Positions 9,926-55,816 of a DNA stretch of 64,000 bases are shown piece after piece. Made by a program: the position numbers and the translations under genes. The notes below the pieces were generated by a model. That model did not search any database. It was given only the letters and a program-made list of their open reading frames with translations, and was not told the DNA's origin. Each line of letters begins with the position of its first letter. Positions within the stretch are counted from its first letter, which is position 1. Origin of the DNA: Thermovirga sp. (GTDB lineage Bacteria > Synergistota > Synergistia > Synergistales > Thermovirgaceae); assembly GCF_017656375.1 (NCBI RefSeq), contig NZ_JACDOB010000005.1:1719-65718 (forward strand). The letters run 5' to 3'.

Positions 9926-9931
9926 AAGCTA

Positions 9932-10024
9932 TGCAATGGGGGAGTCTGCTTAGTGCGGGCTGAGAGGAGATATATTCTCGACCCCTTGAACCTGATCCGG
10001 GTCATGCCGGCGTAGGAAATTGCA
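9932..10024 (+). promoter_or_regulatory. TPP (THI-box) riboswitch
   Basis: P1 is TGCAAT (9932-9937) pairing with ATTGCA (10019-10024). Core GGGGAGTC...GCTGAGAGG...ACCCCTTGAACCTGATCCGGGTCATGCCGGCGTAGGAA matches the THI element consensus and sits directly upstream of thiT. Confidence 0.85.
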
Positions 10025-10136
10025 AGGCGCCTTTTCACAAAGCTAACCTTTCCAAGACTTCCCAGCATGATTTGGATGGTTCCCCCTTTGTAAGCATCAA
10101 AGCATACATTGCATTGGCGAAAGGAGGGAAACTCTT

Positions 10137-10637
10137 ATGAAAGATGAAAGAATCAAAATACTAATAGAAGGGGCTCTTGCAGCTTCTTTTGCTTTGGCTC
10201 TTTCATATGTGAGATTATGGCATATGCCTCAAGGTGGTTCTGTAACATTGGAAAACATCCCCATACTTCTTTTTGCACTGCGTAGGGGGATTAAGGCCGG
10301 ATGCGGGGCTGGAGCAATAGCGGGCATTCTACAGCTTGTCCTAAGTGGCTATGTGGTGCACCCCGCCCAGGCTATTCTAGATTATCCTTTGGCCTTCGGA
10401 GTTCTAGGAGCTGCTGCTTTAATTAAAAAGCCCCTATGGGGCGGCCTAGCTTTAGGGTCAGCTTTACGTTTTCTGTGCCATCTGCTCTCAGGAGTGATTT
10501 TCTTCGGAAGCTACGCTCCCGAAGGTACTAATGTTTGGGCCTACTCAGCTATATACAACGGAAGCTACATGATCCCTAATCTCATTCTGGCTGTTATCCT
10601 TACCTATCTAATTTGGCCAAGGCTAAAAAATCTGTAA
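10137..10637 (+). CDS. thiT: Thiamine transporter ThiT (ECF S-component)
   Basis: 166 aa, 6 TM. LSYVRLWHMPQGGSVTLENIPILLFALRRG. Preceded by the TPP riboswitch. Confidence 0.85.
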   Translation: MKDERIKILIEGALAASFALALSYVRLWHMPQGGSVTLENIPILLFALRRGIKAGCGAGAIAGILQLVLSGYVVHPAQAILDYPLAFGVLGAAALIKKPLWGGLALGSALRFLCHLLSGVIFFGSYAPEGTNVWAYSAIYNGSYMIPNLILAVILTYLIWPRLKNL

Positions 10638-32564: not shown

Positions 32565-33482
32565 ATGGCAAAACAGCTAATTGAGTGCGTACCAAATTTT
32601 AGTGAAGGTAGAAGGAAAGATGTCATTGAAGCAATAGTTGAACCTTTCAAAAAACAGAAAGGATGCTACCTCTTCGATTATCGTGCAGACGAAGATCACA
32701 ACAGGTTGGTCGTCAGCTTGGCCGGCGAGCCCCAGCCCATCTGCGACGCGGTACTTGAAGCCTCAAAAATCGCCATGCAGCACATCGACATGAACACCCA
32801 TCAGGGCGCTCACCCAAGAATCGGTGCAATCGACGTAATACCCTTCACTCCTATAAGCAACATAACAATGGAAGAGTGCGTAGAATTGGCCAGAACCTTT
32901 GGAGAACGCTACTACAACGAACTCAAGATTCCCGTATACTATTACGAAGAAGCGGCCATAAGGCCTGATAGGACCCGCCTTGAAGTCATCCGTAAAGGAC
33001 AATATGAGGTGCTAAAAGAAGAAGTAGTAAAGCCAGAACGCCATCCAGACGTAGGAGAGCCAAAACTTCACCCAACTGCAGGAGCGACAGTAATAGGAGC
33101 AAGAAAGTTCCTCATAGCCTTCAACGTAAATCTCAACACAACCGATGTCAGCATCGCCAAGGCCATAGCCAAGAGAGTGAGAGCCTCCGGCGGTGGATTT
33201 ACGGCAGTTAAGGGGATCGGCTTAGCCTTGGAGGATAAAGGGCTCGTTCAGGTAAGCATGAACATAGTAGACTACGACAAGACAGCCATTTACAGGGTCT
33301 TGGAGTTCATCCGCATGGAAGCCGCAAGGTGGGGAGTCACCATAAATGGCACAGAAGTCTACGGCATGATCCCCGCTGCAGCATTAATCCAGAGCGCTGA
33401 ATATTACCTACAAATCGACGACTTTGATCCTTCTCAGGTCTTAGAGTTGAAGCTCCTTGAACTTATGAGAGAGGAAGATTAA
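32565..33482 (+). CDS. Glutamate formimidoyltransferase
   Basis: 305 aa. IECVPNFSEGR, HPRIGAIDVIPF. Confidence 0.85.
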   Translation: MAKQLIECVPNFSEGRRKDVIEAIVEPFKKQKGCYLFDYRADEDHNRLVVSLAGEPQPICDAVLEASKIAMQHIDMNTHQGAHPRIGAIDVIPFTPISNITMEECVELARTFGERYYNELKIPVYYYEEAAIRPDRTRLEVIRKGQYEVLKEEVVKPERHPDVGEPKLHPTAGATVIGARKFLIAFNVNLNTTDVSIAKAIAKRVRASGGGFTAVKGIGLALEDKGLVQVSMNIVDYDKTAIYRVLEFIRMEAARWGVTINGTEVYGMIPAAALIQSAEYYLQIDDFDPSQVLELKLLELMREED

Positions 33483-33484
33483 TT

Positions 33485-34729
33485 ATGCTTACAACCCTGT
33501 TTCGCAACGCTGCCATATACACTCCTGTTGATGAGGGTAAACCCTTGGCAGGCAAGCTCCAGGGACAGGTGAGGTCGTGGGAAAAAGGGGCTCTCCTCTG
33601 TGACAAGGGGGTAATAATGGCGGTAGGCCCTGAGGAAGAAGTCCTCTCAAAAGCCAAGGAACTAGACATCGACATGGAAATAGACTGTCAGGGTGCGTGC
33701 ATGATACCAGGGTTCGTAGATCCTCATACTCATATTTGTTTTGCCGAACGTAGGGAAAAGGAATTTTCCATGCGCCTTGCAGGCGCCTCGTACCTGGACA
33801 TCCTAAAGGCTGGAGGCGGCATACTCTCTTCAGTCCGGGCCGTGAGAAATGCTTCAGAGGAAGAGCTGCTCGCTACAACGTTGGACAACGTCTTGACAGC
33901 GTTGAGCTTTGGTACCACCTCCATGGAGATTAAAAGCGGCTACGGCCTAGACACGGAAACAGAGCTTAAAATGCTCCGGGTAATAGACAGAATAGGGAAA
34001 GAAACTCCTCTGGATGTGGTGCCCACTTTCATGGGCGCTCACGCCATACCTGAAGAATACAAGTCAGACCCTGAAGCTTTCGTTAAGCTACTTATCGAGG
34101 AGATGATTCCAGCGGCAGCTGACCAGAACATTGCTCAATTTTGCGATGTTTTCTGCGAAGAAGGCGTTTTCTCCGTGGAACAGAGCCGAAAAATTCTTTT
34201 GGCTGCCAAAGAACATGGCTTTAAGCTGAGGATACATGCCGACGAAGTCCATGACCTAGGTGGAGCTGGACTCGCTGCAGAGTTGAGGACCACATCTGCA
34301 GAGCATCTTCTGGCAGCTAGCGAAGAAAATCTCAAGGCCATGGCCGAAAGCGGAGTAATAGCTAACCTGCTGCCTGCGACGGCCTACAGCCTGAAAAAAC
34401 CTTACGCAAAGGCAAGGAAGATGATAGAACTGGGTGTCCCCGTGGCTCTCGCCACAGACTGCAATCCTGGTTCAAGTTACACCGAATCGATGCCCTTTGT
34501 CTTCGGCCTCGCTGTAATGAACATGAATCTCACCGTCGAGGAGGCGCTGGTTGCCTCCACGTTGAATGCAGCCTGGTCAATAGGCCTAAATCATAAAGTA
34601 GGAAGCTTGGAAGTAGGAAAACAGGCAGACTTCCTGCTCCTGGACGGTGAAACGCCTGCCATACTGGCATACCACGCTGGAGTCTCTCCGGTAATGGAAG
34701 TTTACAAAAAAGGCATCCACGTAGCCTAG
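33485..34729 (+). CDS. hutI: Imidazolonepropionase
   Basis: 414 aa amidohydrolase. PGFVDPHTHICF, IHADE, ATDCNPGSS. Confidence 0.9.
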   Translation: MLTTLFRNAAIYTPVDEGKPLAGKLQGQVRSWEKGALLCDKGVIMAVGPEEEVLSKAKELDIDMEIDCQGACMIPGFVDPHTHICFAERREKEFSMRLAGASYLDILKAGGGILSSVRAVRNASEEELLATTLDNVLTALSFGTTSMEIKSGYGLDTETELKMLRVIDRIGKETPLDVVPTFMGAHAIPEEYKSDPEAFVKLLIEEMIPAAADQNIAQFCDVFCEEGVFSVEQSRKILLAAKEHGFKLRIHADEVHDLGGAGLAAELRTTSAEHLLAASEENLKAMAESGVIANLLPATAYSLKKPYAKARKMIELGVPVALATDCNPGSSYTESMPFVFGLAVMNMNLTVEEALVASTLNAAWSIGLNHKVGSLEVGKQADFLLLDGETPAILAYHAGVSPVMEVYKKGIHVA

Positions 34730-34751
34730 ATAAAAGACAGGAGGTTATAAA

Positions 34752-35381
34752 ATGAAGCTATCAGAACTTACCATAAAGGCGTTTACAGATGAACTTGCTT
34801 CCTCCTCTCCTGCTCCTGGTGGAGGTAGTGTCGCAGCTTTAGCAGCATCCTTGGGCTCTGCCCTCTCATCCATGGTAGGAAGACTGACTGTCGGTAAGGA
34901 AAAGTACCGCGATAACTGGGAAGCCATGGAAAAGGTAATCGAGACTGGAGATACGTTGAAGGATAGATTCCTCCAGCTGATGGAAGATGACACCGAGGCG
35001 TTCAACGACTTCATGGCCGCTTTGAAGATGCCCAAGGACACTGAAGAACAGAAGGCTGCTCGCACGAAAGCCATGCAGGAAGGGCTCAAAAAAGCCGTCA
35101 AAGTGCCTCTTGAGACGTTGAAAGCCTGCAAGGCAATGGCAGAAATTGCCCTGACTGCCACGCAAAAAGGGAATCCCAATGCCATTACTGATGCAGGCAC
35201 AGCAGTGCTTCTTGCCAAAACTGCAGGGATTGCCGCTGCATATAACGTAAGGATAAACCTTGGAAGCATAAAGGACGAGGCCTTTGTCTCAGAGGTAAGC
35301 CAGGAAGTAAAAGAGACGCTGAAAAGCATCTTTGAGATAGCAGATAAGGCTGGGGAAATAGTGGAACAAGCCCTCGTATAG
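34752..35381 (+). CDS. Formimidoyltetrahydrofolate cyclodeaminase
   Basis: 209 aa. FTDELASSSPAPGGGSVAALAASLGSAL, typical of the cyclodeaminase domain. Confidence 0.85.
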   Translation: MKLSELTIKAFTDELASSSPAPGGGSVAALAASLGSALSSMVGRLTVGKEKYRDNWEAMEKVIETGDTLKDRFLQLMEDDTEAFNDFMAALKMPKDTEEQKAARTKAMQEGLKKAVKVPLETLKACKAMAEIALTATQKGNPNAITDAGTAVLLAKTAGIAAAYNVRINLGSIKDEAFVSEVSQEVKETLKSIFEIADKAGEIVEQALV

Positions 35382-35420
35382 GCGAGGATTTTAGCAAAAA
35401 GCAAAAGGAGGGGATTAGTA

Positions 35421-37457
35421 ATGGATCTTAACTTTCTCAACGGAGAAGCCATGACCATAAAACTGGATGCTGAGCTCCCTGAGTATCCAGAATTTGTACC
35501 TGGAATAAGAAGGGCACCAGACAGAGGGTGGACCTTGAATCAGAAAGAAACAGAGCTCGCATTGAAGAACGCCCTCAGGTACGTACCGGAGGAACTTCAC
35601 GAGAAACTTGCCCCTGAGTTCATGGAAGAGCTCATGACAAGGGGGCGTATCTACGCTTACAGGTACCGTCCTGCGGGGCGCATCTGGGGCAAACCCATTC
35701 ACGAGTACAAGGGCAAGTGCCTTGCCGGTAAGGCGTTTCAGGTAATGATAGACAACAACCTTGACTTTGATGTCGCCCTCTATCCTTACGAACTCGTGAC
35801 ATATGGAGAAACCGGGCAAGTTTGCCAGAACTGGCTGCAGTACAGGCTCATCAAAAAGTACCTTGAAGAGCTAACGGAAGACACCACATTGGTTATAGAG
35901 AGCGGACATCCCGTGGGACTCTTTAAGTCAAGGCCAGATGCCCCTAGGGTCATCATCACCAATGGCCTTTTGGTTGGCATGTTCGACAACCCCAAGGATT
36001 GGCACAGGGGAATGCAGCTTGGTGTTACAAACTACGGCCAGATGACAGCAGGCGGTTGGATGTACATAGGCCCCCAGGGAATAGTACACGGCACCTACAA
36101 CACCATACTCAACGCAGCTAGGCAGCAGTTGGGTGTAGGCCCTAAAGATAACCTGGCAGGCATTCTCTTTGTCTCCTCAGGCCTTGGTGGCATGAGCGGA
36201 GCCCAGCCCAAAGCTGTTGAAATCGCAGGCGGCGTTGGCATCATCGCAGAAGTGGATCCTTCAAGGATAGAGACCAGAAGGAAACAAGGATGGGTAAATG
36301 AGGTTACCGACAGCTGCGAAAAAGCCTTTGCCATGGCCAAGGAAGCTGCCGATCAGAAGCGCCCCTTGTCAATTGCGTACCATGGTAACATAGTAGACTT
36401 ACTCCAATACGCCGTGGACAACAATATCCACATTCCTCTTCTTTCGGATCAGACTTCCTGCCATGCACCATACGAGGGTGGCTACTGCCCCGTAGGGCTC
36501 ACATTCGAAGAAAGGACCAAGATGCTTCACGAAAATCCTGAAGAATATCGCAGGAGAGTGGACGAGACCCTCAGAAAGCACTTTGAGCTCATCAAGACTT
36601 TAACTGAGCGTGGAACCTACTTCTTCGACTACGGTAACTCCTTCATGAAGGCTGTTTTCGATGCTGGGGTTAAAGAGATCTGCAAAAACGGCAAAGACAC
36701 CTACGACGGGTTCATCTGGCCTTCCTACGTTGAGGATATCATGGGACCAGTGCTCTTTGACTACGGCTACGGCCCCTTCCGCTGGGTATGCTTGAGTGGA
36801 GATCCAGAGGACCTCAGAAAGACCGACAAGGCTGCAATGGAGTGTATAGATCCTAACCGCCGGGCTCAGGACTACGACAACTGGATCTGGATCAGGGACG
36901 CAGAGAAAAACAAGCTAGTCGTAGGAACTCAGGCCAGAATCTTGTATCAGGATGCAGAAGGCCGACTCAAGATAGCCTTAAAGTTCAACGAAATGGTAAG
37001 AAAGGGAGAAATTGGCCCTGTCATGCTTGGAAGGGACCATCATGACGTTTCGGGTACTGACTCACCATTTAGAGAGACTTCCAACATTAAGGATGGCAGT
37101 AACATAACCGCTGACATGGCAATCCAATGCTTCGCAGGTAACGCTGCAAGAGGCATGACCCTGTGCGCCCTTCACAACGGTGGCGGAGTAGGCATAGGCA
37201 AGGCTATCAACGGCGGCTTTGGCATGCTGCTTGACGGGTCTGAGCGGGTTGATGAGATATTGAAGTCCGCCATGATGTGGGACGTCCTCGGCGGTGTAGC
37301 CAGAAGGGCCTGGGGACGCTGTGAGCACGCCATGGAAGTAAGCCGAGAAATCAACAGCAAGTACAAAGACAGCTATCACATCACCCTGCCATACGTGCCT
37401 GACGATGAACTAGTCTCCAAGACTGTCGCTGAAGCAATAGAGAAACACAAAAAATAA
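35421..37457 (+). CDS. hutU: Urocanate hydratase
   Basis: 678 aa. YGQMTAGGWMYIGPQGIVHGTY, GLGGMSGAQPKA, LHNGGGVGIG. Confidence 0.92.
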   Translation: MDLNFLNGEAMTIKLDAELPEYPEFVPGIRRAPDRGWTLNQKETELALKNALRYVPEELHEKLAPEFMEELMTRGRIYAYRYRPAGRIWGKPIHEYKGKCLAGKAFQVMIDNNLDFDVALYPYELVTYGETGQVCQNWLQYRLIKKYLEELTEDTTLVIESGHPVGLFKSRPDAPRVIITNGLLVGMFDNPKDWHRGMQLGVTNYGQMTAGGWMYIGPQGIVHGTYNTILNAARQQLGVGPKDNLAGILFVSSGLGGMSGAQPKAVEIAGGVGIIAEVDPSRIETRRKQGWVNEVTDSCEKAFAMAKEAADQKRPLSIAYHGNIVDLLQYAVDNNIHIPLLSDQTSCHAPYEGGYCPVGLTFEERTKMLHENPEEYRRRVDETLRKHFELIKTLTERGTYFFDYGNSFMKAVFDAGVKEICKNGKDTYDGFIWPSYVEDIMGPVLFDYGYGPFRWVCLSGDPEDLRKTDKAAMECIDPNRRAQDYDNWIWIRDAEKNKLVVGTQARILYQDAEGRLKIALKFNEMVRKGEIGPVMLGRDHHDVSGTDSPFRETSNIKDGSNITADMAIQCFAGNAARGMTLCALHNGGGVGIGKAINGGFGMLLDGSERVDEILKSAMMWDVLGGVARRAWGRCEHAMEVSREINSKYKDSYHITLPYVPDDELVSKTVAEAIEKHKK

Positions 37458-37481
37458 GATAGCAAAAGAAAAGCGAACGAA

Positions 37482-37509
37482 GGTCCCGGCAGGCTTTGCC
37501 GGGACCTTT
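37482..37509 (+). terminator. 10-bp perfect hairpin with a short T tract between hutU and the hutG-like gene (partial terminator or processing site)
   Basis: GGTCCCGGCA (37482-37491) pairs with TGCCGGGACC (37497-37506), then TTTC. Confidence 0.5.
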
Positions 37510-37528
37510 CAATAGGGAGGCAGGCCAA

Positions 37529-38518
37529 ATGGAGCTTTTTATAAGTCCACCTCTGTCGGAGTGGTTTTACAGTCGAAATGACCCATCTGATCCGAGGCTG
37601 GGAGACCTGATAAAACCTGTAGAAAAAGACCTTCAAGAAGAGATCAAGAAAGCTCATATAGCTATCCTGGGGTTCCCAGAGGACCGGGGAATAATAGCGA
37701 ACGGCGGTAAGGCTGGCGCATCCTTGGGCCCTGAATACATACGAAAGGCCTTTTACAAACTAACTCCCGGCTTCGGCAATGCCTTCATGAGCTTGAGCAT
37801 AATTGACCTAGGGAATATAATACCTGGCCAAACCCTGGAGGAGAGTCACACAAGGCTCAAGGAGGCTGTAAAAGTAGTCGTAGAAAATGGGGTTTTCCCC
37901 ATAGTTTTGGGGGGAGGGCATGACCTTTCCTTTGCAGGTTTTTGTGGCCTAGTAGAAGGCCTTCAGCTAGGTGAAAAGGCCCTTGGGGGAATCAACGTAG
38001 ACTGCCACCTGGACGTACGAGAATATCACGATAAAATAACAAGCGGAACTCCCTTTAGGCGGGCACTGGAAGAACTCCCCAACCGTGCCCTGAATCCAAG
38101 AGCCTTCGTTGAATTTGGGATACAGGAGCCATATAATTCCCCCTACCACTACGAGTGGATAAAAAAACAGCACGTAACGGTAATGACCTTGAACAACATA
38201 GGCAACAGGCCTATAGAATTCTTCTTGGAGGCCTGCCGCATTGCCAGCGAAGGCACAAGGGCCGTAGCACTCTCCATAGATATAGATTCAGCACGAAATC
38301 ACGAAGCGCCTGGGGCCTCGGCCAGCAATCCAAGGGGATTCAAGGCACCGGAACTGGAAAGAATAGCATATATAGCTGGAAGAACCGGAAAAATAAGGTA
38401 CCTGGACATAGCAGAGATGAGTCCTCCCCTAGATCAAGGGGGCCGCACTGCTTCTTTATGTGCGGGGATCCTCTTTTGGTTCTGCAAAGGCTTTTCCGAA
38501 AGGGCATATTTGACATAA
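37529..38518 (+). CDS. hutG: Arginase-fold ureohydrolase, formimidoylglutamase-like
   Basis: GGGHDLSF, DCHLDVRE, SIDIDS (Mn-binding arginase-family motifs) in a hut context. ATG at 37529 after GGGAGG. Confidence 0.7.
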   Translation: MELFISPPLSEWFYSRNDPSDPRLGDLIKPVEKDLQEEIKKAHIAILGFPEDRGIIANGGKAGASLGPEYIRKAFYKLTPGFGNAFMSLSIIDLGNIIPGQTLEESHTRLKEAVKVVVENGVFPIVLGGGHDLSFAGFCGLVEGLQLGEKALGGINVDCHLDVREYHDKITSGTPFRRALEELPNRALNPRAFVEFGIQEPYNSPYHYEWIKKQHVTVMTLNNIGNRPIEFFLEACRIASEGTRAVALSIDIDSARNHEAPGASASNPRGFKAPELERIAYIAGRTGKIRYLDIAEMSPPLDQGGRTASLCAGILFWFCKGFSERAYLT

Positions 38519-38572
38519 AACAAACGCCATGTTAGGATTGCTCAAAATGATATCACGAGGAGCATTTACGCG

Positions 38573-38623
38573 ATGAAGATAAATAGTTTCAAGTTTTGCT
38601 GTTGTAGGCAGATGGTTAGTTAA
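38573..38623 (+). CDS. Candidate cysteine-sensing leader peptide MKINSFKFCCCRQMVS
   Basis: GAGGAG (38557-38562), ATG at 38573, UGC-UGU-UGU at 38597-38605, TAA at 38621-38623. Below the ORF-track size cutoff. Confidence 0.55.
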   Translation: MKINSFKFCCCRQMVS

Positions 38624-38710
38624 CCTCTGCCGCAGCCGGAAAGGCTGCGGGAGAAAAAGCCCGCATGTGCCTTCCGGCCAACAAAATAAACTGAACCGAT
38701 AAGTGATAAG

Positions 38711-38747
38711 AAGCGGGCTTTCTTTAAGGAAAGCCCGCTTTATTTTT
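38711..38747 (+). terminator. Intrinsic terminator inside the cysE leader
   Basis: AAGCGGGCTTTC pairs with GAAAGCCCGCTT (12 bp), followed by TATTTTT. Confidence 0.8.
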
Positions 38748-38861
38748 CAAAAGGCAAAGAATAAGGAGGTGAGGTCCGTGGAAAGCGGTTGTGGCTGTTG
38801 TAGGCCAGTCATCAAAGAAAAACACAATTTTAGCTATTTAAAGATAAGGAGGAATAAAAAC

Positions 38862-39545
38862 ATGGGAATTATAAAAGACATAATAGCAGATTACAAGGCC
38901 ATAAGAGATCAAGACCCCGCTTTCCGCGGGGGGATGCTAGGTTTTCTGGAGATAATATTCTGCTATCCTGGCTTTCACGCTCTTTTGGTTCATAAACTAA
39001 ACCACTTTATGTATCAAAAACTGAAGTTAAGGATTTTACCTAGGCTCATAAGCTTAATAGTGCGATGGATCACCGGCATAGAGATCCATCCAGGAGCAAA
39101 AATAGCTGGTGGCGTCTTCATAGACCACGGTATGGGAATAGTAATAGGCGAAACCGCCACAGTAGGGCAAGGAGTGACCATATATCAAGGAGTCACCCTC
39201 GGTGCTACCGGCAATGAAAAAAGTTTCCAGAGGCACCCAACCATCGGTGATGGCACCATCATAGGAAGCGGTGCCAGGGTTCTGGGCAATATAACTGTAG
39301 GGGCAAACTCCAAAATAGGAGCTAACAGCGTGGTACTTAAAAACATTCCTCCCAACAGTACAGTGGTCGGAATCCCAGCTAAGATCGTCAAAATAAATGG
39401 CATGAAGACCGTGTCATTACAAGAGCCAAATCAGGACCTTTTGAACAAAATAAATAAACTTCAGAAAGAAATAGAAATTCTTAAGGACCAACTCAAAATG
39501 ATTGAGAAAACTGAAGAAATTTTTGACGGAAAGGTGGTAATTTAA
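38862..39545 (+). CDS. cysE: Serine O-acetyltransferase
   Basis: MGIIKDIIADYKAIRDQDPA, hexapeptide repeats GIEIHPGAKIAGGVFIDHGMGIVIGETATVG. AGGAGG SD before the ATG at 38862. An in-frame upstream GTG at 38778 with its own SD is discussed in the findings. The C-terminal 50 aa look like a coiled-coil extension. Confidence 0.85.
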   Translation: MGIIKDIIADYKAIRDQDPAFRGGMLGFLEIIFCYPGFHALLVHKLNHFMYQKLKLRILPRLISLIVRWITGIEIHPGAKIAGGVFIDHGMGIVIGETATVGQGVTIYQGVTLGATGNEKSFQRHPTIGDGTIIGSGARVLGNITVGANSKIGANSVVLKNIPPNSTVVGIPAKIVKINGMKTVSLQEPNQDLLNKINKLQKEIEILKDQLKMIEKTEEIFDGKVVI

Positions 39546-40466
39546 ATGATATCCATCAACTCTTTACCTTTAGCCAAATTGATAGGCAGAACCCCCATGT
39601 ATCAGATAAATCCCATAAAAAATGCTGCTAAAATCCTCATAAAGCTTGAAGGCAACAACATTGGAGGGTCAATAAAGGACCGAGCAGCCTGGGGTATGAT
39701 GCAATTTGCAGAAAAAGAAGGAAAACTGCAAGATCAAACCGTAATAGTGGAACCTACCAGCGGCAACACTGGCATAGCCTTAGCCATGTTGGGCTCTGCC
39801 ATGGGGTTGAAGGTCATGTTGACCATGCCAGAATCCATGTCAAAAGAGAGACAGGGCATACTCAAAGCCTACGGAGCGGAGCTAGTCCTGACGAAGGCAG
39901 GAGAAGGAATGAAAGGCGCCATCAAAGCCGCTCATGAAATAGCCAATAACACACCCTTTGCCTTTATGCCAGACCAGTTCTCCAACCCAGGGAACCCGTG
40001 GGCTCATTCGGTAACCACTGCCCCAGAAATACTGAGGGATCTAAACGGCAAGGCTCCATTCGCTTTCGTCGCTGGCATAGGAACAGGAGGAACCATCTCA
40101 GGAATTGGCAAGGTATTAAAATCCGTTTTCCCCTCTACAAAGGTCATAGGTGTCGAGCCAGCCAAAAGTGCTGTGCTATCCGGCAGAGCCCCAGGCCCTC
40201 ATGGCATACAAGGCATAGGAGCCGGGTTTGTACCCCCCAATCTAGACCTTGAAGTGGTGGATGAAATAATAGCTGTAGAGGACGAACAGGCATTCGATAT
40301 GGCCCGATGGCTAGGGAAAAAGGAAGGGTTGTTCTGCGGTATATCCTCAGGAGCAAATATTTGGGCTGCTATGAAAATCGCAGAAACTGCTCCACCTGAC
40401 GCTGTAGTAGTAACTATCGCCCCCGACAGAGGAGATAAATATCTTAGTGCTTCGGTGTTCAACTGA
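39546..40466 (+). CDS. cysK: Cysteine synthase A (O-acetylserine sulfhydrylase)
   Basis: 306 aa. GGSIKDRAA (PLP lysine), PTSGNTGIALA, GTGGTISG. Confidence 0.9.
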   Translation: MISINSLPLAKLIGRTPMYQINPIKNAAKILIKLEGNNIGGSIKDRAAWGMMQFAEKEGKLQDQTVIVEPTSGNTGIALAMLGSAMGLKVMLTMPESMSKERQGILKAYGAELVLTKAGEGMKGAIKAAHEIANNTPFAFMPDQFSNPGNPWAHSVTTAPEILRDLNGKAPFAFVAGIGTGGTISGIGKVLKSVFPSTKVIGVEPAKSAVLSGRAPGPHGIQGIGAGFVPPNLDLEVVDEIIAVEDEQAFDMARWLGKKEGLFCGISSGANIWAAMKIAETAPPDAVVVTIAPDRGDKYLSASVFN

Positions 40467-40514: not shown

Positions 40515-41801
40515 TTATAAATAACGCCAAAAGACATATGCGGCAGAAACCGCCAAAGTTGCTAACATTAAAACCATCCCTCTCGCAAGGAAGGTCTTAA
40601 AATCCAGTTTGATGCCAGCCTTATTAGCAACACCTGCCATAACTAGGTTAGCTGATGCACCCACCAAAGTTCCATTGCCACCTAAGCACGCCCCAAGAGC
40701 CAGGGCCCACCATAAGGGCCTCGGATCGTATCCTCCAAGTTGGGAAATATGTTTGACCAATGGAATAACTGCTGCAGTATATGGAACATTATCAACTACC
40801 GCAGATGCTACACCTGATGCCCATATCAAAATCATCGTCAATGCCCTGAAGTGATCGCCAAAAAGGGAAAACATCTTCGTAGCAAACAACTCTATCACGC
40901 CGACATGCTCAAGGGTACCTACAAGCATGAAAAGCATGGAAAAGAACAAGATAGTCACCCAATCCACGTCCAGTAATATTTCCTCCACGTCAACGGGACA
41001 CACTATCAATGCAAGGGTCGCCCCTGCAAGGGCTATTGTGGCAGCTTCAAAATGAAGCATCCCATGCAATATAAAACCAACTAAGACAAGAGCCATTACA
41101 AATAGCACTTTAACAGTAAGAGCTGGATCGTGAAGCTTTTTCGGAACAGAAAACTCTCCTTTCGACATTTCTCCATCTCTTTTCGGCCTCAAGTCATTGC
41201 CATACCAAAAATAGAGCAAGCCAAAAAGGACAATCATGGACAAAGCCACTGGCGGGCCCAGGTTTATTATGAACTCATTAAAAGTAAGGCCCGCAGCTGA
41301 ACCTATCAGTAGGTTAGGAGGGTCTCCGATGAGGGTTGCAGTACCACCTATGTTTGAAGAGAAAATCTCAGCAAATATGAAAGGCATGGGATTTATCTCC
41401 ATGACATCCGCCACCGCCAAGGCTATCGGCCCCACCAACAGTACGGTTGTCACATTATCTATGAGGGCAGACACTACTGCCGTAAGGGAAGCCAAAAAAA
41501 CCAAAAGTATCCAAGCGTTCCCTTTGCTGTAGCTTACTGCCTCAGCAGCTATATGCTGGATGAGGCCAGTTTTTTTAAGTATGCCTACCAAAATCATCAT
41601 GCCCAGCAAAAGCCCAATGGTGTTGAAATCTATAAAAGAGAAAATCTCACTTTGTTCAACCAATTGCATTAGGAGCACCAGTGAGAAACCCAACATTGCT
41701 GCTTTGAGTCTGTGAAGTCGCTCCGTAATTATGAAAGCATATGTAAGGCAAAAGATAATAAGAGCAAGTAACTGGACACGATTCAAGAATATCATCTCCA
41801 A
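40515..41801 (-). CDS. ArsB/NhaD-superfamily (CitMHS-like) anion permease
   Basis: 428 aa, about 11-12 TM. GGTATLIGDPPNLLIG and GGNGTLVGASANLV, a repeated hairpin motif typical of this superfamily. Confidence 0.7.
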   Translation of the reverse strand: MEMIFLNRVQLLALIIFCLTYAFIITERLHRLKAAMLGFSLVLLMQLVEQSEIFSFIDFNTIGLLLGMMILVGILKKTGLIQHIAAEAVSYSKGNAWILLVFLASLTAVVSALIDNVTTVLLVGPIALAVADVMEINPMPFIFAEIFSSNIGGTATLIGDPPNLLIGSAAGLTFNEFIINLGPPVALSMIVLFGLLYFWYGNDLRPKRDGEMSKGEFSVPKKLHDPALTVKVLFVMALVLVGFILHGMLHFEAATIALAGATLALIVCPVDVEEILLDVDWVTILFFSMLFMLVGTLEHVGVIELFATKMFSLFGDHFRALTMILIWASGVASAVVDNVPYTAAVIPLVKHISQLGGYDPRPLWWALALGACLGGNGTLVGASANLVMAGVANKAGIKLDFKTFLARGMVLMLATLAVSAAYVFWRYL

Positions 41802-41917
41802 AAATCTATAAATTTGCTAAATTGGCCCTCGACGGGGAAAAATAGTACTCCTTTTTTCCATTTTTTCAAGCCAAACCCAATAATTCTTGATTGCTCTACA
41901 ATATATAATAGGATTTT

Positions 41918-43051
41918 CTAGTTCCCTATCAGCCCTTCCAACTTCACAGCCATACCCCTGTTCAATATTTTTAAGATCTCTACCTCCTTGGCGGCACCTT
42001 CTCTGTTCCCCAAGAGCAGGAAAGTTACTCCCTTGCCAAAATGGCTGTCAGGAAAGTTGGGCTCCAGGGCAAGGGCCTTTTCGAAGGCCTCCATAGCTTC
42101 TTCGTAGTGATCTACTCCTATAAGGGCAAACCCCAAGCTGTTGTACGCCCTGTAGGACTGGCTATCCGCTTCAACTGCCTTCTGGGCTGCATCAAGAGCC
42201 CTTTGGTAACTTTGAAGGCGAAGGTAGGTCTGACTGAGGTTGTTCCAGGTTTCCACCGAGGTTGGATCCAACTCTCCTGCCCTGGCAAAGGCTTCAGCCG
42301 CAGCATTGTACTGCCTGTTCGAAAAAAGCATGACTCCGAAGTTGTAGAGCAGCTTTGGATTATCCGGATCTTTGGCTATGGCTTCCTTGAAGACTTCTGT
42401 ACCTTTATCGGCCATTCCCATTCTCCTATAGGCAAATGCCAAGGCCACTTTTGCATTGGTATAATCAGGCCTTAGTTCTAGGGCTTTGTTGTATTGGGCT
42501 ATAGCACTCTCATAATCACCAAGGGCTTTTTGAGCTTCGCCAAGGTAATAATGGTTTTGAGGGCTTTCAGGAGCAAGAAGAGCTGCCTTTTGAAGATATG
42601 AAAGGGCTTCCTGCGGCCTGCGCTCTGCTAGAAGGAGCCTGCCTAGATTGGACCACCCCAAAGAGAAGCTTTCATCTACTTCCACTGATTTTTTAAATGC
42701 CTTCTCGGCCTCAGAAAGTTTTCCCATTTTCCAGTAAAGGTTTCCTAAACTGTTATGTATTTCAGGCATATTGTCTTTAAACTTTAAGGCCTCCTGATAT
42801 TCCCTAAGGGCCTGGTCAAATTCTTCTTTGCTTTCCAAAACCACTCCCAGGTTATAATGCGCTTCCGCTAATGTAGGCTTTAATTGCAGTGCCTCTTGTA
42901 AAAGCTCTTCAGCATCATCAAGCCTTCCCTCCGAAGCTGCATCTATGGCTTTATTAACGAGGTTCTCTGCTTCGCCTGCAAAAGCAGCTCCTGTAGCAAA
43001 AGCGAAAATCATAAGACCTGTAACTAAAAGCATAAAAACTTTCTTCATCAT
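41918..43051 (-). CDS. Secreted TPR-repeat protein
   Basis: Signal peptide MMKKVFMLLVTGLMIFAFATGAAFA, then about 9 TPR units (AEAHYNLG, EIHNSLGNLY, LGWSNLG, NHYYLGEA and others). Confidence 0.8.
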   Translation of the reverse strand: MMKKVFMLLVTGLMIFAFATGAAFAGEAENLVNKAIDAASEGRLDDAEELLQEALQLKPTLAEAHYNLGVVLESKEEFDQALREYQEALKFKDNMPEIHNSLGNLYWKMGKLSEAEKAFKKSVEVDESFSLGWSNLGRLLLAERRPQEALSYLQKAALLAPESPQNHYYLGEAQKALGDYESAIAQYNKALELRPDYTNAKVALAFAYRRMGMADKGTEVFKEAIAKDPDNPKLLYNFGVMLFSNRQYNAAAEAFARAGELDPTSVETWNNLSQTYLRLQSYQRALDAAQKAVEADSQSYRAYNSLGFALIGVDHYEEAMEAFEKALALEPNFPDSHFGKGVTFLLLGNREGAAKEVEILKILNRGMAVKLEGLIGN

Positions 43052-54115: not shown

Positions 54116-55816
54116 ATGAAACGGAGGATGAGAGAGCCCTTTCGTAAAATATGTTTGTTTGCCATAGCAATTTTTGCCTGTTTATTTTGTTTTCCGAACA
54201 TCCAATCTTTCGGAGCCAACAACGTAGTGAACTTGGAGAACATCAAGGGGCCTAAAATAAAGGACCTGTACATGGTGATATACAGGGATCCAGACTCCCA
54301 AATACTGGCATTAGAGACAGGAAAGCTAGACGTCCTGGGTGACATCATAAGGCCTGTGGACATAAAGAGGCTTTCTTCCAGAGACGATATACTCATGACA
54401 TTGTCTGAAGGCTTCCACATATTCTTTTTGGGCTTCAATCTCAGAGAATACCCCTGGAATGACTTGGCACTGCGAAAGGCCCTCTCCCACGCCGTCCCAA
54501 GAAAAAAATTTGTAAGAGACCTTTTTGCGGGGTACTGCTTGCCCATATATACATACCTCCCACCCGTCTCCCCATATTACGAACCTGACGTCACCCATTA
54601 TGAGTACGATCCAGAGAAAGCAAAAAAAATCCTTGCCAAAGCCGGATGGAAGTGGAGCCAAGGAGGACTATTAATACCTCCCGGTAGCGACAAGCCTCTG
54701 GAAAAGGTGTCTTTGCTATGCCCCACCGCACAGGCAGCTCCTACAACAGCAGAGCTGGCTTCTAGAATAGCGGAATCCTTCTCCAGCCTGGGGCTTCCGG
54801 TGGAACTGGAAATGCTTGACTTTTCCATGATGATAAAAAGGCTGGATAAGCACGACTTTGATCTATTCGTAATGGCCTGGAGTTTAAGCCGCGACCCTGA
54901 TAACCTATTTGCCTTCTTCCATTCCTCCATGGACACCGAAGGGGGGTACAATATTCAGGGCCTCCACGACTCCGAAATAGATAAAGTTCTTGAAGACCTT
55001 CGCTGGGCTCCCGACAAGGACTCTGCCGTCAAGGCAGCCAAAGAGGCTCAAGAGATGCTGTCAGATAAGGCACCGTGGATTCCCATATATTCCCGTTACA
55101 TGATATCTGCCATAAGGAAAGACTGGAAGGGGTTAACATTCTCAAAGAAGACTACAGCAGACAACATATGGAGCCTTCTAAACATGGAGCCAGTAAACGG
55201 AAAAATGAGGCCCTTATACTGGTGCCTGCCTGAAGACCCGAGGACTCTCAACCCCCTTGCGGCTGGTTCCGCTTACGACTGGGCTGTTTTGGGGTTGATA
55301 TATGAATCCCTTATAGGTACAGACCCTTATACTCTGGACGATATTCCACAGCTAGCTTTAAAATGGAATATAGAAACCGAAACTCACGGCACAAAAAAAT
55401 TAACAAAACTCGTATTTCACCTTCGTGAAGATGTTACTTGGCAAGACGGAGCACTTTTTACCTCTGAGGACGTTAAAGAGACTATACTTTTCTTAAAAAA
55501 ACACCAACTTCCCCGTTATTTCGACCAAGTTAACAACGTAGTCTCAGTGGAAACGCCCAACGAGCATGAGGTCGTCGTCACTTTAGAGAACACCAGCTAC
55601 TGGTACCTGCACAACATAGGAGGGCTACCCATTTTCCCGGCACACATCCTCAAGAATGTTGAGAACTGGAAAAGCTGGAGGCCAGAAAGGCAAGAGAACC
55701 CCAAGGACCCAAAACTTACCCAACTTGTGGGAACTGGGCCTTTTATATTCATGGAATACAAGCCAGGAGAATACGTACATCTGAAAAGGTATGATGGGTA
55801 TTGGAAAAACAGATAA
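54116..55816 (+). CDS. ABC transporter substrate-binding protein, family 5 (peptide/nickel/opine type)
   Basis: Signal-like N-terminus ICLFAIAIFACLF, about 560 aa. The start is ambiguous between 54116 and 54128. Confidence 0.8.
   Translation: MKRRMREPFRKICLFAIAIFACLFCFPNIQSFGANNVVNLENIKGPKIKDLYMVIYRDPDSQILALETGKLDVLGDIIRPVDIKRLSSRDDILMTLSEGFHIFFLGFNLREYPWNDLALRKALSHAVPRKKFVRDLFAGYCLPIYTYLPPVSPYYEPDVTHYEYDPEKAKKILAKAGWKWSQGGLLIPPGSDKPLEKVSLLCPTAQAAPTTAELASRIAESFSSLGLPVELEMLDFSMMIKRLDKHDFDLFVMAWSLSRDPDNLFAFFHSSMDTEGGYNIQGLHDSEIDKVLEDLRWAPDKDSAVKAAKEAQEMLSDKAPWIPIYSRYMISAIRKDWKGLTFSKKTTADNIWSLLNMEPVNGKMRPLYWCLPEDPRTLNPLAAGSAYDWAVLGLIYESLIGTDPYTLDDIPQLALKWNIETETHGTKKLTKLVFHLREDVTWQDGALFTSEDVKETILFLKKHQLPRYFDQVNNVVSVETPNEHEVVVTLENTSYWYLHNIGGLPIFPAHILKNVENWKSWRPERQENPKDPKLTQLVGTGPFIFMEYKPGEYVHLKRYDGYWKNR

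Follow-up and report, generated by a model that had tools for sequence, protein, structure and literature searches.

How might the cysteine biosynthesis genes cysE and cysK of an uncultured Thermovirga sp. be regulated, given that they are preceded by a very small open reading frame (ORF) with three consecutive cysteine codons and by a terminator-like hairpin? The genes lie in a stretch of 64,000 nucleotides of contig NZ_JACDOB010000005.1 (positions 1,719 to 65,718, forward strand), which was analyzed at its full length and is referred to here as the window. A first-pass annotation of this DNA had proposed a cysteine-codon leader peptide with a trp-style terminator/antiterminator in front of the two genes. 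Our analysis of the sequence, combined with modeling of RNA folding, makes it highly probable that the leader is a ribosome-mediated leader-peptide transcription attenuator that is specific for cysteine, controls cysE-cysK, and is part of a family conserved among Synergistota. This reading draws on the elements of the leader, their folding energies, how the fold depends on where the ribosome stands, conservation and covariation, and from these observations we infer that the leader ORF is translated, that ribosomes stall on it, and that read-through responds to cysteine.

The leader ORF consists of 16 codons and a TAA stop (38573-38623; coordinates refer to the window unless another lineage is named, and features are on the forward strand unless indicated otherwise) and encodes the peptide MKINSFKFCCCRQMVS. 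It begins with the ATG at 38573, ends with the TAA at 38621-38623, is preceded by the Shine-Dalgarno (SD) sequence GAGGAG at 38557-38562, and has cysteine codons at positions 9-11 (UGC UGU UGU, 38597-38605), all of which were read from the sequence exactly where the first-pass annotation had placed them. A consensus scan indicated a sigma-70-type promoter at 38510-38538 (TTGACA-17-TAGGAT with a TG extension), whose -35 hexamer overlaps the stop codon of the formimidoylglutamase-like gene hutG and whose predicted -10 hexamer, with its last base at 38538, lies 34 nt 5′ of the leader ATG. Downstream of the leader, cysE encodes a serine O-acetyltransferase of 227 aa (38862-39545; TIGR01172, 220.4 bits against a cutoff of 210.65); it starts at ATG 38862, the same methionine at which its homologues begin, and has an SD of its own (AAGGAGG, 38846-38852). 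The cysK gene, encoding a cysteine synthase A of 306 aa (39546-40466; TIGR01139, 397.5 bits against a cutoff of 350.95), directly abuts the cysE stop.

The whole 204-nt leader folds with a z score of -5.7, and none of 200 shuffled sequences folded as well. Its six segments form two mutually exclusive folds, namely a terminated fold made of hairpins 1:2, 3:4, and 5:6, and a read-through fold made of helices 2:3 and 4:5. Hairpin 1:2 (38607-38617 with 38622-38631; GGCAGA.GGUU / AACC UCUGCC) joins the codons just 3′ of the cysteine run to the 5′ arm of helix 2:3, holds the leader stop codon in its loop and 3′ side, and can be extended to 38598-38636 (-19.5 kcal/mol, z -3.2). The next three structures correspond to the B′ helix, the C helix with its outer stem, and the antiterminator that had been paired by hand in the first-pass annotation, and all three were upheld by computation. 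Helix 2:3 (B′; 38626-38637 with 38643-38654) has 11 pairs and one mismatch over 12 positions and folds at -23.0 kcal/mol (z -5.0), while hairpin 3:4 (38635-38651 with 38660-38678; -28.3 kcal/mol, z -4.5) is an anti-antiterminator that sequesters AAAGCCCGC. In the antiterminator 4:5, AAAGCCCGC at 38656-38664 pairs with GCGGGCTTT at 38713-38721 in nine of nine positions, at -19.2 kcal/mol including internal structure (z -3.2). The intrinsic terminator 5:6 (38710-38748) was present with its U-run as annotated, but its GC-rich stem comprises 14 bp (38710-38723 with 38728-38741) and not 12; it has the loop UUAA, an energy of -23.6 kcal/mol (z -5.7), and a U-tract encoded by ATTTTT, and it is the one terminator found by the consensus scan (38710-38741). 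In the his leader, the pairings A:B, C:D, and E:F compete with B:C and D:E, and the trp leader has four segments. By this description the six-segment relay of the present leader matches the his layout, and the earlier assignment to the trp type has to be given up. Searches of the leader against Rfam, at the gathering score and at E values up to 10, yielded no T-box (RF00230), S-adenosylmethionine (SAM)/S-box, or other family match, in line with what the first-pass annotation had said of T-box and S-box cores; the best match to an amino acid leader was Thr_leader, at 13.7 bits and on the wrong strand.

In the mechanism that we propose, transcription would start about 7 nt 3′ of the -10 hexamer (38533-38538), and a ribosome on the leader ORF would gauge the supply of Cys-tRNA(Cys). 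When Cys-tRNA is scarce, this ribosome would stall with a cysteine codon (38597-38605) in its A-site, leaving hairpin 1:2 melted and segment 2 (38626-38637) free; segment 2 would pair with segment 3 once the latter is transcribed, and segment 4 (AAAGCCCGC), left single, would pair with segment 5 (GCGGGCTTT), which is the 5′ arm of the terminator, with read-through into cysE-cysK as the outcome. When Cys-tRNA is plentiful, the ribosome would reach the stop codon at 38621-38623 and cover segment 2; hairpin 3:4 would then form, segment 5 would stay free, and formation of the 14-bp terminator would end the transcript at about 38748. A leader that is not translated would be terminated as well, through hairpin 1:2 (holding segment 2), hairpin 3:4, and the terminator. 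The stall/stop logic, already part of the first-pass annotation, was modeled on a transcript cut just before the 3′ arm of the terminator, with a ribosome footprint of 28 nt (-12 to +15 from the first P-site base) forced single-stranded. The results showed that the probability of the antiterminator was 0.96-0.97 with the A-site at cysteine codon 9, 10, or 11, compared with 0.04 without a ribosome, 0.00-0.05 when one of codons 2-8 occupied the A-site, and 0.00 with the ribosome at the stop. The fold is switched on exactly at the first cysteine codon, both in the window and in the Thermovirga lienii-like contig L171 described below. This dependence on ribosome position held for 3′ limits of the footprint from +13 to +19 nt and failed only at +11.

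The leader is strongly conserved within Thermovirga. GyrA of the window and GyrA of T. lienii DSM 17291 share 93% identity, with the next tier of matches in Thermovirgaceae and Synergistales, and in a set of 5.8 billion proteins only two CysE clusters exceeded 55% identity, the one at 81% being that of T. lienii. An identical CysE was found on 11 metagenomic contigs, whose leaders are almost the same outside a hypervariable patch (approximately 38546-38578). Near-identical strains differ there by about 11 changes within 30 nt, and the 290 nt that follow show virtually no variation. This patch spans the 5′ untranslated region (UTR) and the first two leader codons, and even there the SD and the ATG are kept, in the strain variants as well as in six other lineages, the SD persisting as GAGGTG or AAGGAG in strain variants and L171. 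In L171, the 81% relative, the arrangement is the same and the leader peptide is MKSFSFVLCCCRQMVR; both promoter hexamers are unchanged in this contig and in the strain variants. Between the window and L171 the cysE DNA is 76% identical and its third codon positions are 50% identical, compared with 95% for the 87-nt leader core. The four differences in the core include a synonymous cysteine change (UGC to UGU) and a change from TAA to TGA by which the stop is kept.

Homologous leaders were also found in other Synergistota, with the peptides MVINAMNICCCGRTI in Aminobacterium (L178-L180), MVFNATFNFCCCGRRN in an unclassified Aminobacterium sp. (L091), MSERNSFTCCCRWMSL and MFYRDLNSCCRRWIVI in the lineages L181 and L183, respectively, and ..NVCICRWILS in Acetomicrobium sp. 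S15 (L184/L185). Each homologous member has a short ORF with CCC, CC, or CxC immediately 5′ of hairpin 1:2 and its stop within the hairpin, and promoters comparable to that of the window lie 5′ of the leaders in L178, L091, L181, and L184. A covariance model of the leader core scored 61-88 bits 5′ of cysE in Thermovirga, Aminobacterium, Acetomicrobium, L181, and L183, and returned nothing convincing (best score 20 bits, E 0.015) from about 170 cysE loci of other phyla and the rest of the window. Scans of genome and metagenome contigs with CysE, which were dominated by the generic hexapeptide pattern FIDHGMGI, added only relatives from other phyla at about 50% identity, and the leader is missing from all of these. 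The upstream gene varies with the lineage (hutG, an Iso_dh gene, a gene for a response regulator with an HD domain, a cupin gene, a divergent LMWPc gene, or a glutamine synthetase gene), and the leader therefore belongs to, and travels with, cysE. In addition, lineage L186 has an analogous leader, MMKKSAFVTVKTKFCCCCMEDPKG (CCCC; 1715-1925), which cannot be aligned with the others and precedes a cysE that stands alone; with its start about 7 nt 3′ of a TAGAAT -10 box it looks leaderless, and it is followed by a terminator of -33 kcal/mol. This leader may have arisen independently on the same principle. Not all members of the phylum have the element, since cysE at two loci from Synergistetes metagenome-assembled genomes, L172 (2390-2520) and L175 (2395-2520), is preceded only by a promoter and an SD and not by a cysteine leader; at both loci cysE lies between two PALP genes. 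The fold of the leaders was compared between lineages using explicit structures, since a more generic measure, the probability that the terminator 5′ arm pairs with any upstream sequence, gave too much noise. In minimum-energy folds, five of the eight lineages (the window, L171, L183, L178, and L186) showed the contrast between a stall at the cysteine codons and a ribosome at the stop, and L091 showed it for the first cysteine codon only.

Covariation was assessed in an alignment of seven lineages (the window, L171, L181, L183, L184, L178, and L091). These share the cysteine run, the position of the stop, both folds, and the terminator, with compensatory changes, as the first-pass annotation would predict of relatives. 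For the terminated fold, 91% of the alignment cells are paired, a share that sliding of the partners lowers to 41-51%, and 11 pairs show double changes; for the read-through fold, the corresponding values are 90.6%, 40-52%, and five pairs. Among the individual helices, hairpin 1:2 has compensatory changes in four of its ten pairs, helix 2:3 has 94.8% of cells paired and double changes in three pairs, the inner helix of hairpin 3:4 is conserved, and the terminator has 97.9% of cells paired and double changes in six pairs. In L181 three interacting strands shift together, segment 4 changing from GCCCGC to GCCCGU, segment 5 from GCGGGC to ACGGGC, and segment 6 from GCCCGC to GCCCGU.

Several observations count against a cysteine attenuator of this kind or restrict how it could operate. 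The antiterminator, which the first-pass annotation expected to compete with the terminator, does so on the truncated transcript, with a probability of 0.96 at a cysteine stall, but the minimum-energy fold of the full-length RNA contains the terminator at every ribosome position. Given that the terminator wins at equilibrium, the switch must be kinetic, i.e., co-transcriptional; classical attenuators likewise decide kinetically, during transcription. For L181 and L184 the simple thermodynamic model gives no antiterminator at a cysteine stall, and the spacing of 10 nt between the SD and the ATG of the leader ORF is longish. Only seven lineages were available, which keeps the covariation counts small, and one of the aligned sequences served to derive the structure, which is thus favored over the slid controls, so that these counts appear supportive and not statistically decisive.

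The best surviving alternative, which we nevertheless consider improbable, is that the leader ORF does sense cysteine and that the output is mainly translational or Rho-dependent, the hairpin and U-tract being a leaky stop for the hut genes. Mycobacterial ORFs with cysteine codons act on translation (bioRxiv 10.1101/834739), and a second cysteine-rich ORF lies directly 5′ of cysE in the window (see below). Moreover, reading of the sequence and the consensus scan revealed no terminator between hutG and the cysteine leader, so that the hut cluster runs into the leader and the hairpin could serve to stop hut read-through. The same absence means that the terminator of an attenuator would also stop hut read-through, and a translational output is opposed by the findings that the terminator and antiterminator covary in lineages with an unrelated or divergent upstream gene, that each leader has its own promoter, and that no structure sequesters the cysE SD. 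Also improbable, and in our estimate slightly more so, is a riboswitch or protein-binding leader that senses a metabolite (e.g., O-acetylserine, sulfide, or cysteine) or a regulator, with the small ORF being incidental. Near-invariance of the 87-nt core, despite the 50% identity of third positions in cysE, is also typical of ligand-binding RNAs, and the lack of a known Rfam match is what an undescribed aptamer, which a database search cannot exclude, would give as well. Against this, seven lineages retain the cysteine codons, the frame, the position of the stop (with its TAA/TGA swap), the SD, and the start despite divergence of the other codons, and the structure flips exactly when the first cysteine codon is in the A-site; near-invariance is also expected if each nucleotide pairs with two alternative partners, and the leader has neither a multi-helix junction nor a conserved unpaired core of the aptamer kind. 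A chance association of a terminator-like hairpin with a short ORF having three cysteine codons can be dismissed as negligible, since, although TGYTGYTGY is not rare (six observed in the window against 4.9 expected), so that the case rests on context and conservation and not on the codon run alone, the whole arrangement is kept across genera with compensatory changes and folds with the z score of -5.7 given above.

With a cysteine-specific transcription attenuator as the favored reading, the leader can be compared with known systems. The enterobacterial attenuators (his, trp, leu, thr, pheA, and ilv) likewise have a short ORF with codons for the amino acid of the pathway itself, an intrinsic terminator before the biosynthetic genes, and exclusive hairpins chosen by ribosome position; they differ in that the present leader would sense cysteine, is hosted by Synergistota and not Proteobacteria, and has no similarity to them in sequence or to their Rfam models, and the his leader has seven His codons where three regulatory codons are found here. 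T-box and SAM leaders of Bacillota cys genes share the 5′ position ahead of cysE/cysK-type genes and the choice between terminator and antiterminator, whereas the sensor in the present leader is predicted not to be binding of tRNA or SAM to RNA, no match to their models having been found at E values up to 10. The first-pass annotation associated attenuation of this kind mainly with trp, his, leu, phe, and thr, and the novelty of a cysteine case is lower than was assumed, since earlier cysteine leader peptides are on record. In Rhodobacterales, uORFC-8-2 upstream of cysS has been predicted to be an attenuator with tandem cysteine codons, overlapping stems, and a U-run terminator (Brewer et al., 2021, PMC8632094). 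It resembles the present leader in having a cysteine-codon upstream ORF, stems overlapping the cysteine codons, and a U-run terminator, and differs in controlling cysS and not cysE-cysK, in having two stems, in the location of its cysteine codons at about positions 14-15, and in its alphaproteobacterial host; no Rfam or covariance-model match to it was obtained here, though the presence of this motif in Rfam 15 is unconfirmed, and it is set apart by description. In actinobacterial cys operons, leader peptides with cysteine runs but without terminators have been predicted (Seliverstov et al., 2005, PMC1262725), and in Mycobacterium smegmatis polycysteine ORFs proved to act on translation (Canestrari et al., 2020, bioRxiv 10.1101/834739), with two to three consecutive cysteine codons documented as effective. 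These ORFs also place consecutive cysteine codons ahead of cysteine-metabolism genes, and stalling on them relieves repression. In contrast to the present leader, whose ORF is preceded by a 5′ UTR with an SD and whose predicted output is a terminator/antiterminator pair, the mycobacterial ORFs are leaderless and lack intrinsic terminators, and the studied case frees a sequestered ribosome-binding site; among our lineages only L186 looks leaderless.

No such element at cysE-cysK or in Synergistota came up in full-text literature searches. The mechanism would thus be of a known kind, and the Synergistota cysteine leader family appears to be undescribed. Judged by sequence, no attenuator of the classical kind seen to date at cysteine biosynthesis genes is as complete, and with this family cysteine would join the amino acids that have a complete classical attenuator of leader ORF, antiterminator, and intrinsic terminator, whereas the published cysteine cases in the searchable literature are either without terminators (Actinobacteria) or on cysS (Rhodobacterales). 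It would also be the first regulatory element of sulfur metabolism at the RNA level found for Synergistota in that literature. Synergistota are poorly studied but include the cultivable members T. lienii and Aminobacterium colombiense, in which the element would be testable; in addition, the covariance model of the leader core could seed an Rfam-type family.

The second cysteine-rich upstream ORF (MESGCGCC...; 38763-38861), which is absent from the first-pass annotation, follows directly after the terminator. It has a perfect SD, AAGGAGGTGA at 38763-38772, a GTG start at 38778, and cysteine codons at 38790-38792 and 38796-38801, and it runs in frame into cysE. Counterparts were found in L171 (5989-6078), L181 (2420-2500), L091 (2390-2452), and L178 (2437-2574), and none in L183, L184, or L186. 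At its beginning the consensus is ME-x-[G/D]-C, the N-termini being MESGCGCC in T. lienii, MENDCGCR in L181, MESDCPYAC in L091, and MECDCICCC in L178; only the first 7-9 codons are conserved, and the remaining 20-28 are not, even within the species of the window. The second ORF is in frame with cysE in four lineages (the window, L171, L181, and L091), while that of L178 is in a different frame and stops 73 nt into cysE. From the terminator to the cysE start, no stable or conserved RNA structure was found, including none that would sequester the cysE SD; a duplex of the mycobacterial type, sequestering an SD and opened by translation of the second ORF, was rejected on this ground. The second ORF may be a translational cysteine sensor that occludes the cysE start, and as such a separate and hairpin-free one, or it may encode a genuine cysteine-rich N-terminal isoform. 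A two-tier cysteine sensor, in which the his-type attenuator is combined with a second ORF read through the cysE ribosome-binding site, is put forward only tentatively. If it exists, ribosomes on the second ORF would occlude the cysE start or make an N-terminally extended CysE when cysteine is plentiful, and stalling on the cysteine codons of the second ORF would free the cysE start when it is scarce, so that cysteine would be read twice, by RNA polymerase and by the initiating ribosome, without a sequestering hairpin.

The finding also accounts for a recurring annotation problem, in which several gene callers place the start of CysE 25-28 codons too early, at the second ORF, and so arrive at 252-255 aa in place of the 226-227 aa given by NCBI. 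Across the proteins compared (P0001, P0002, P0056, and P0273), the gene callers of JGI, ENA, and Logan start CysE there, giving 245-255 aa, whereas NCBI starts it at the internal ATG, giving 224-227 aa and matching the N-terminus of all other CysE homologues. The two cysteine ORFs of the window share an identical 12-mer, GCTGTTGTAGGC, at 38598-38609 and 38794-38805 (0.3 chance matches expected with at most one mismatch); as a protein- or RNA-binding repeat it was rejected, since it is not retained in L171 and is most simply read as two cysteine codons plus AGG. Likewise, GGYUGYGG of the second ORF was considered as a mimic of segment 3 and attributed to chance because it is absent in Aminobacterium, and a match to TGCTGTTGTAGGA at 54739-54751 on the reverse strand lies inside a substrate-binding-protein gene and was also taken to be due to chance.

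Upstream of the leader, a histidine-utilization cluster (32565-38518) comprises FTCD-like, imidazolonepropionase-like amidohydrolase, urocanase, and formimidoylglutamase-like genes. Downstream and convergent with cysK, the reverse strand (40515-43051) encodes an ArsB/CitMHS-family transporter and a TPR protein, whose best NCBIfam matches are MamN and MamA, respectively, both with scores under the curated cutoffs; the same neighbors are kept in L171. Elsewhere in the window, a thiamine pyrophosphate (TPP) riboswitch (RF00059; 76.1 bits, E 3e-13) is located at 9928-10035 on the forward strand, 5′ of an ORF at 10137-10637.

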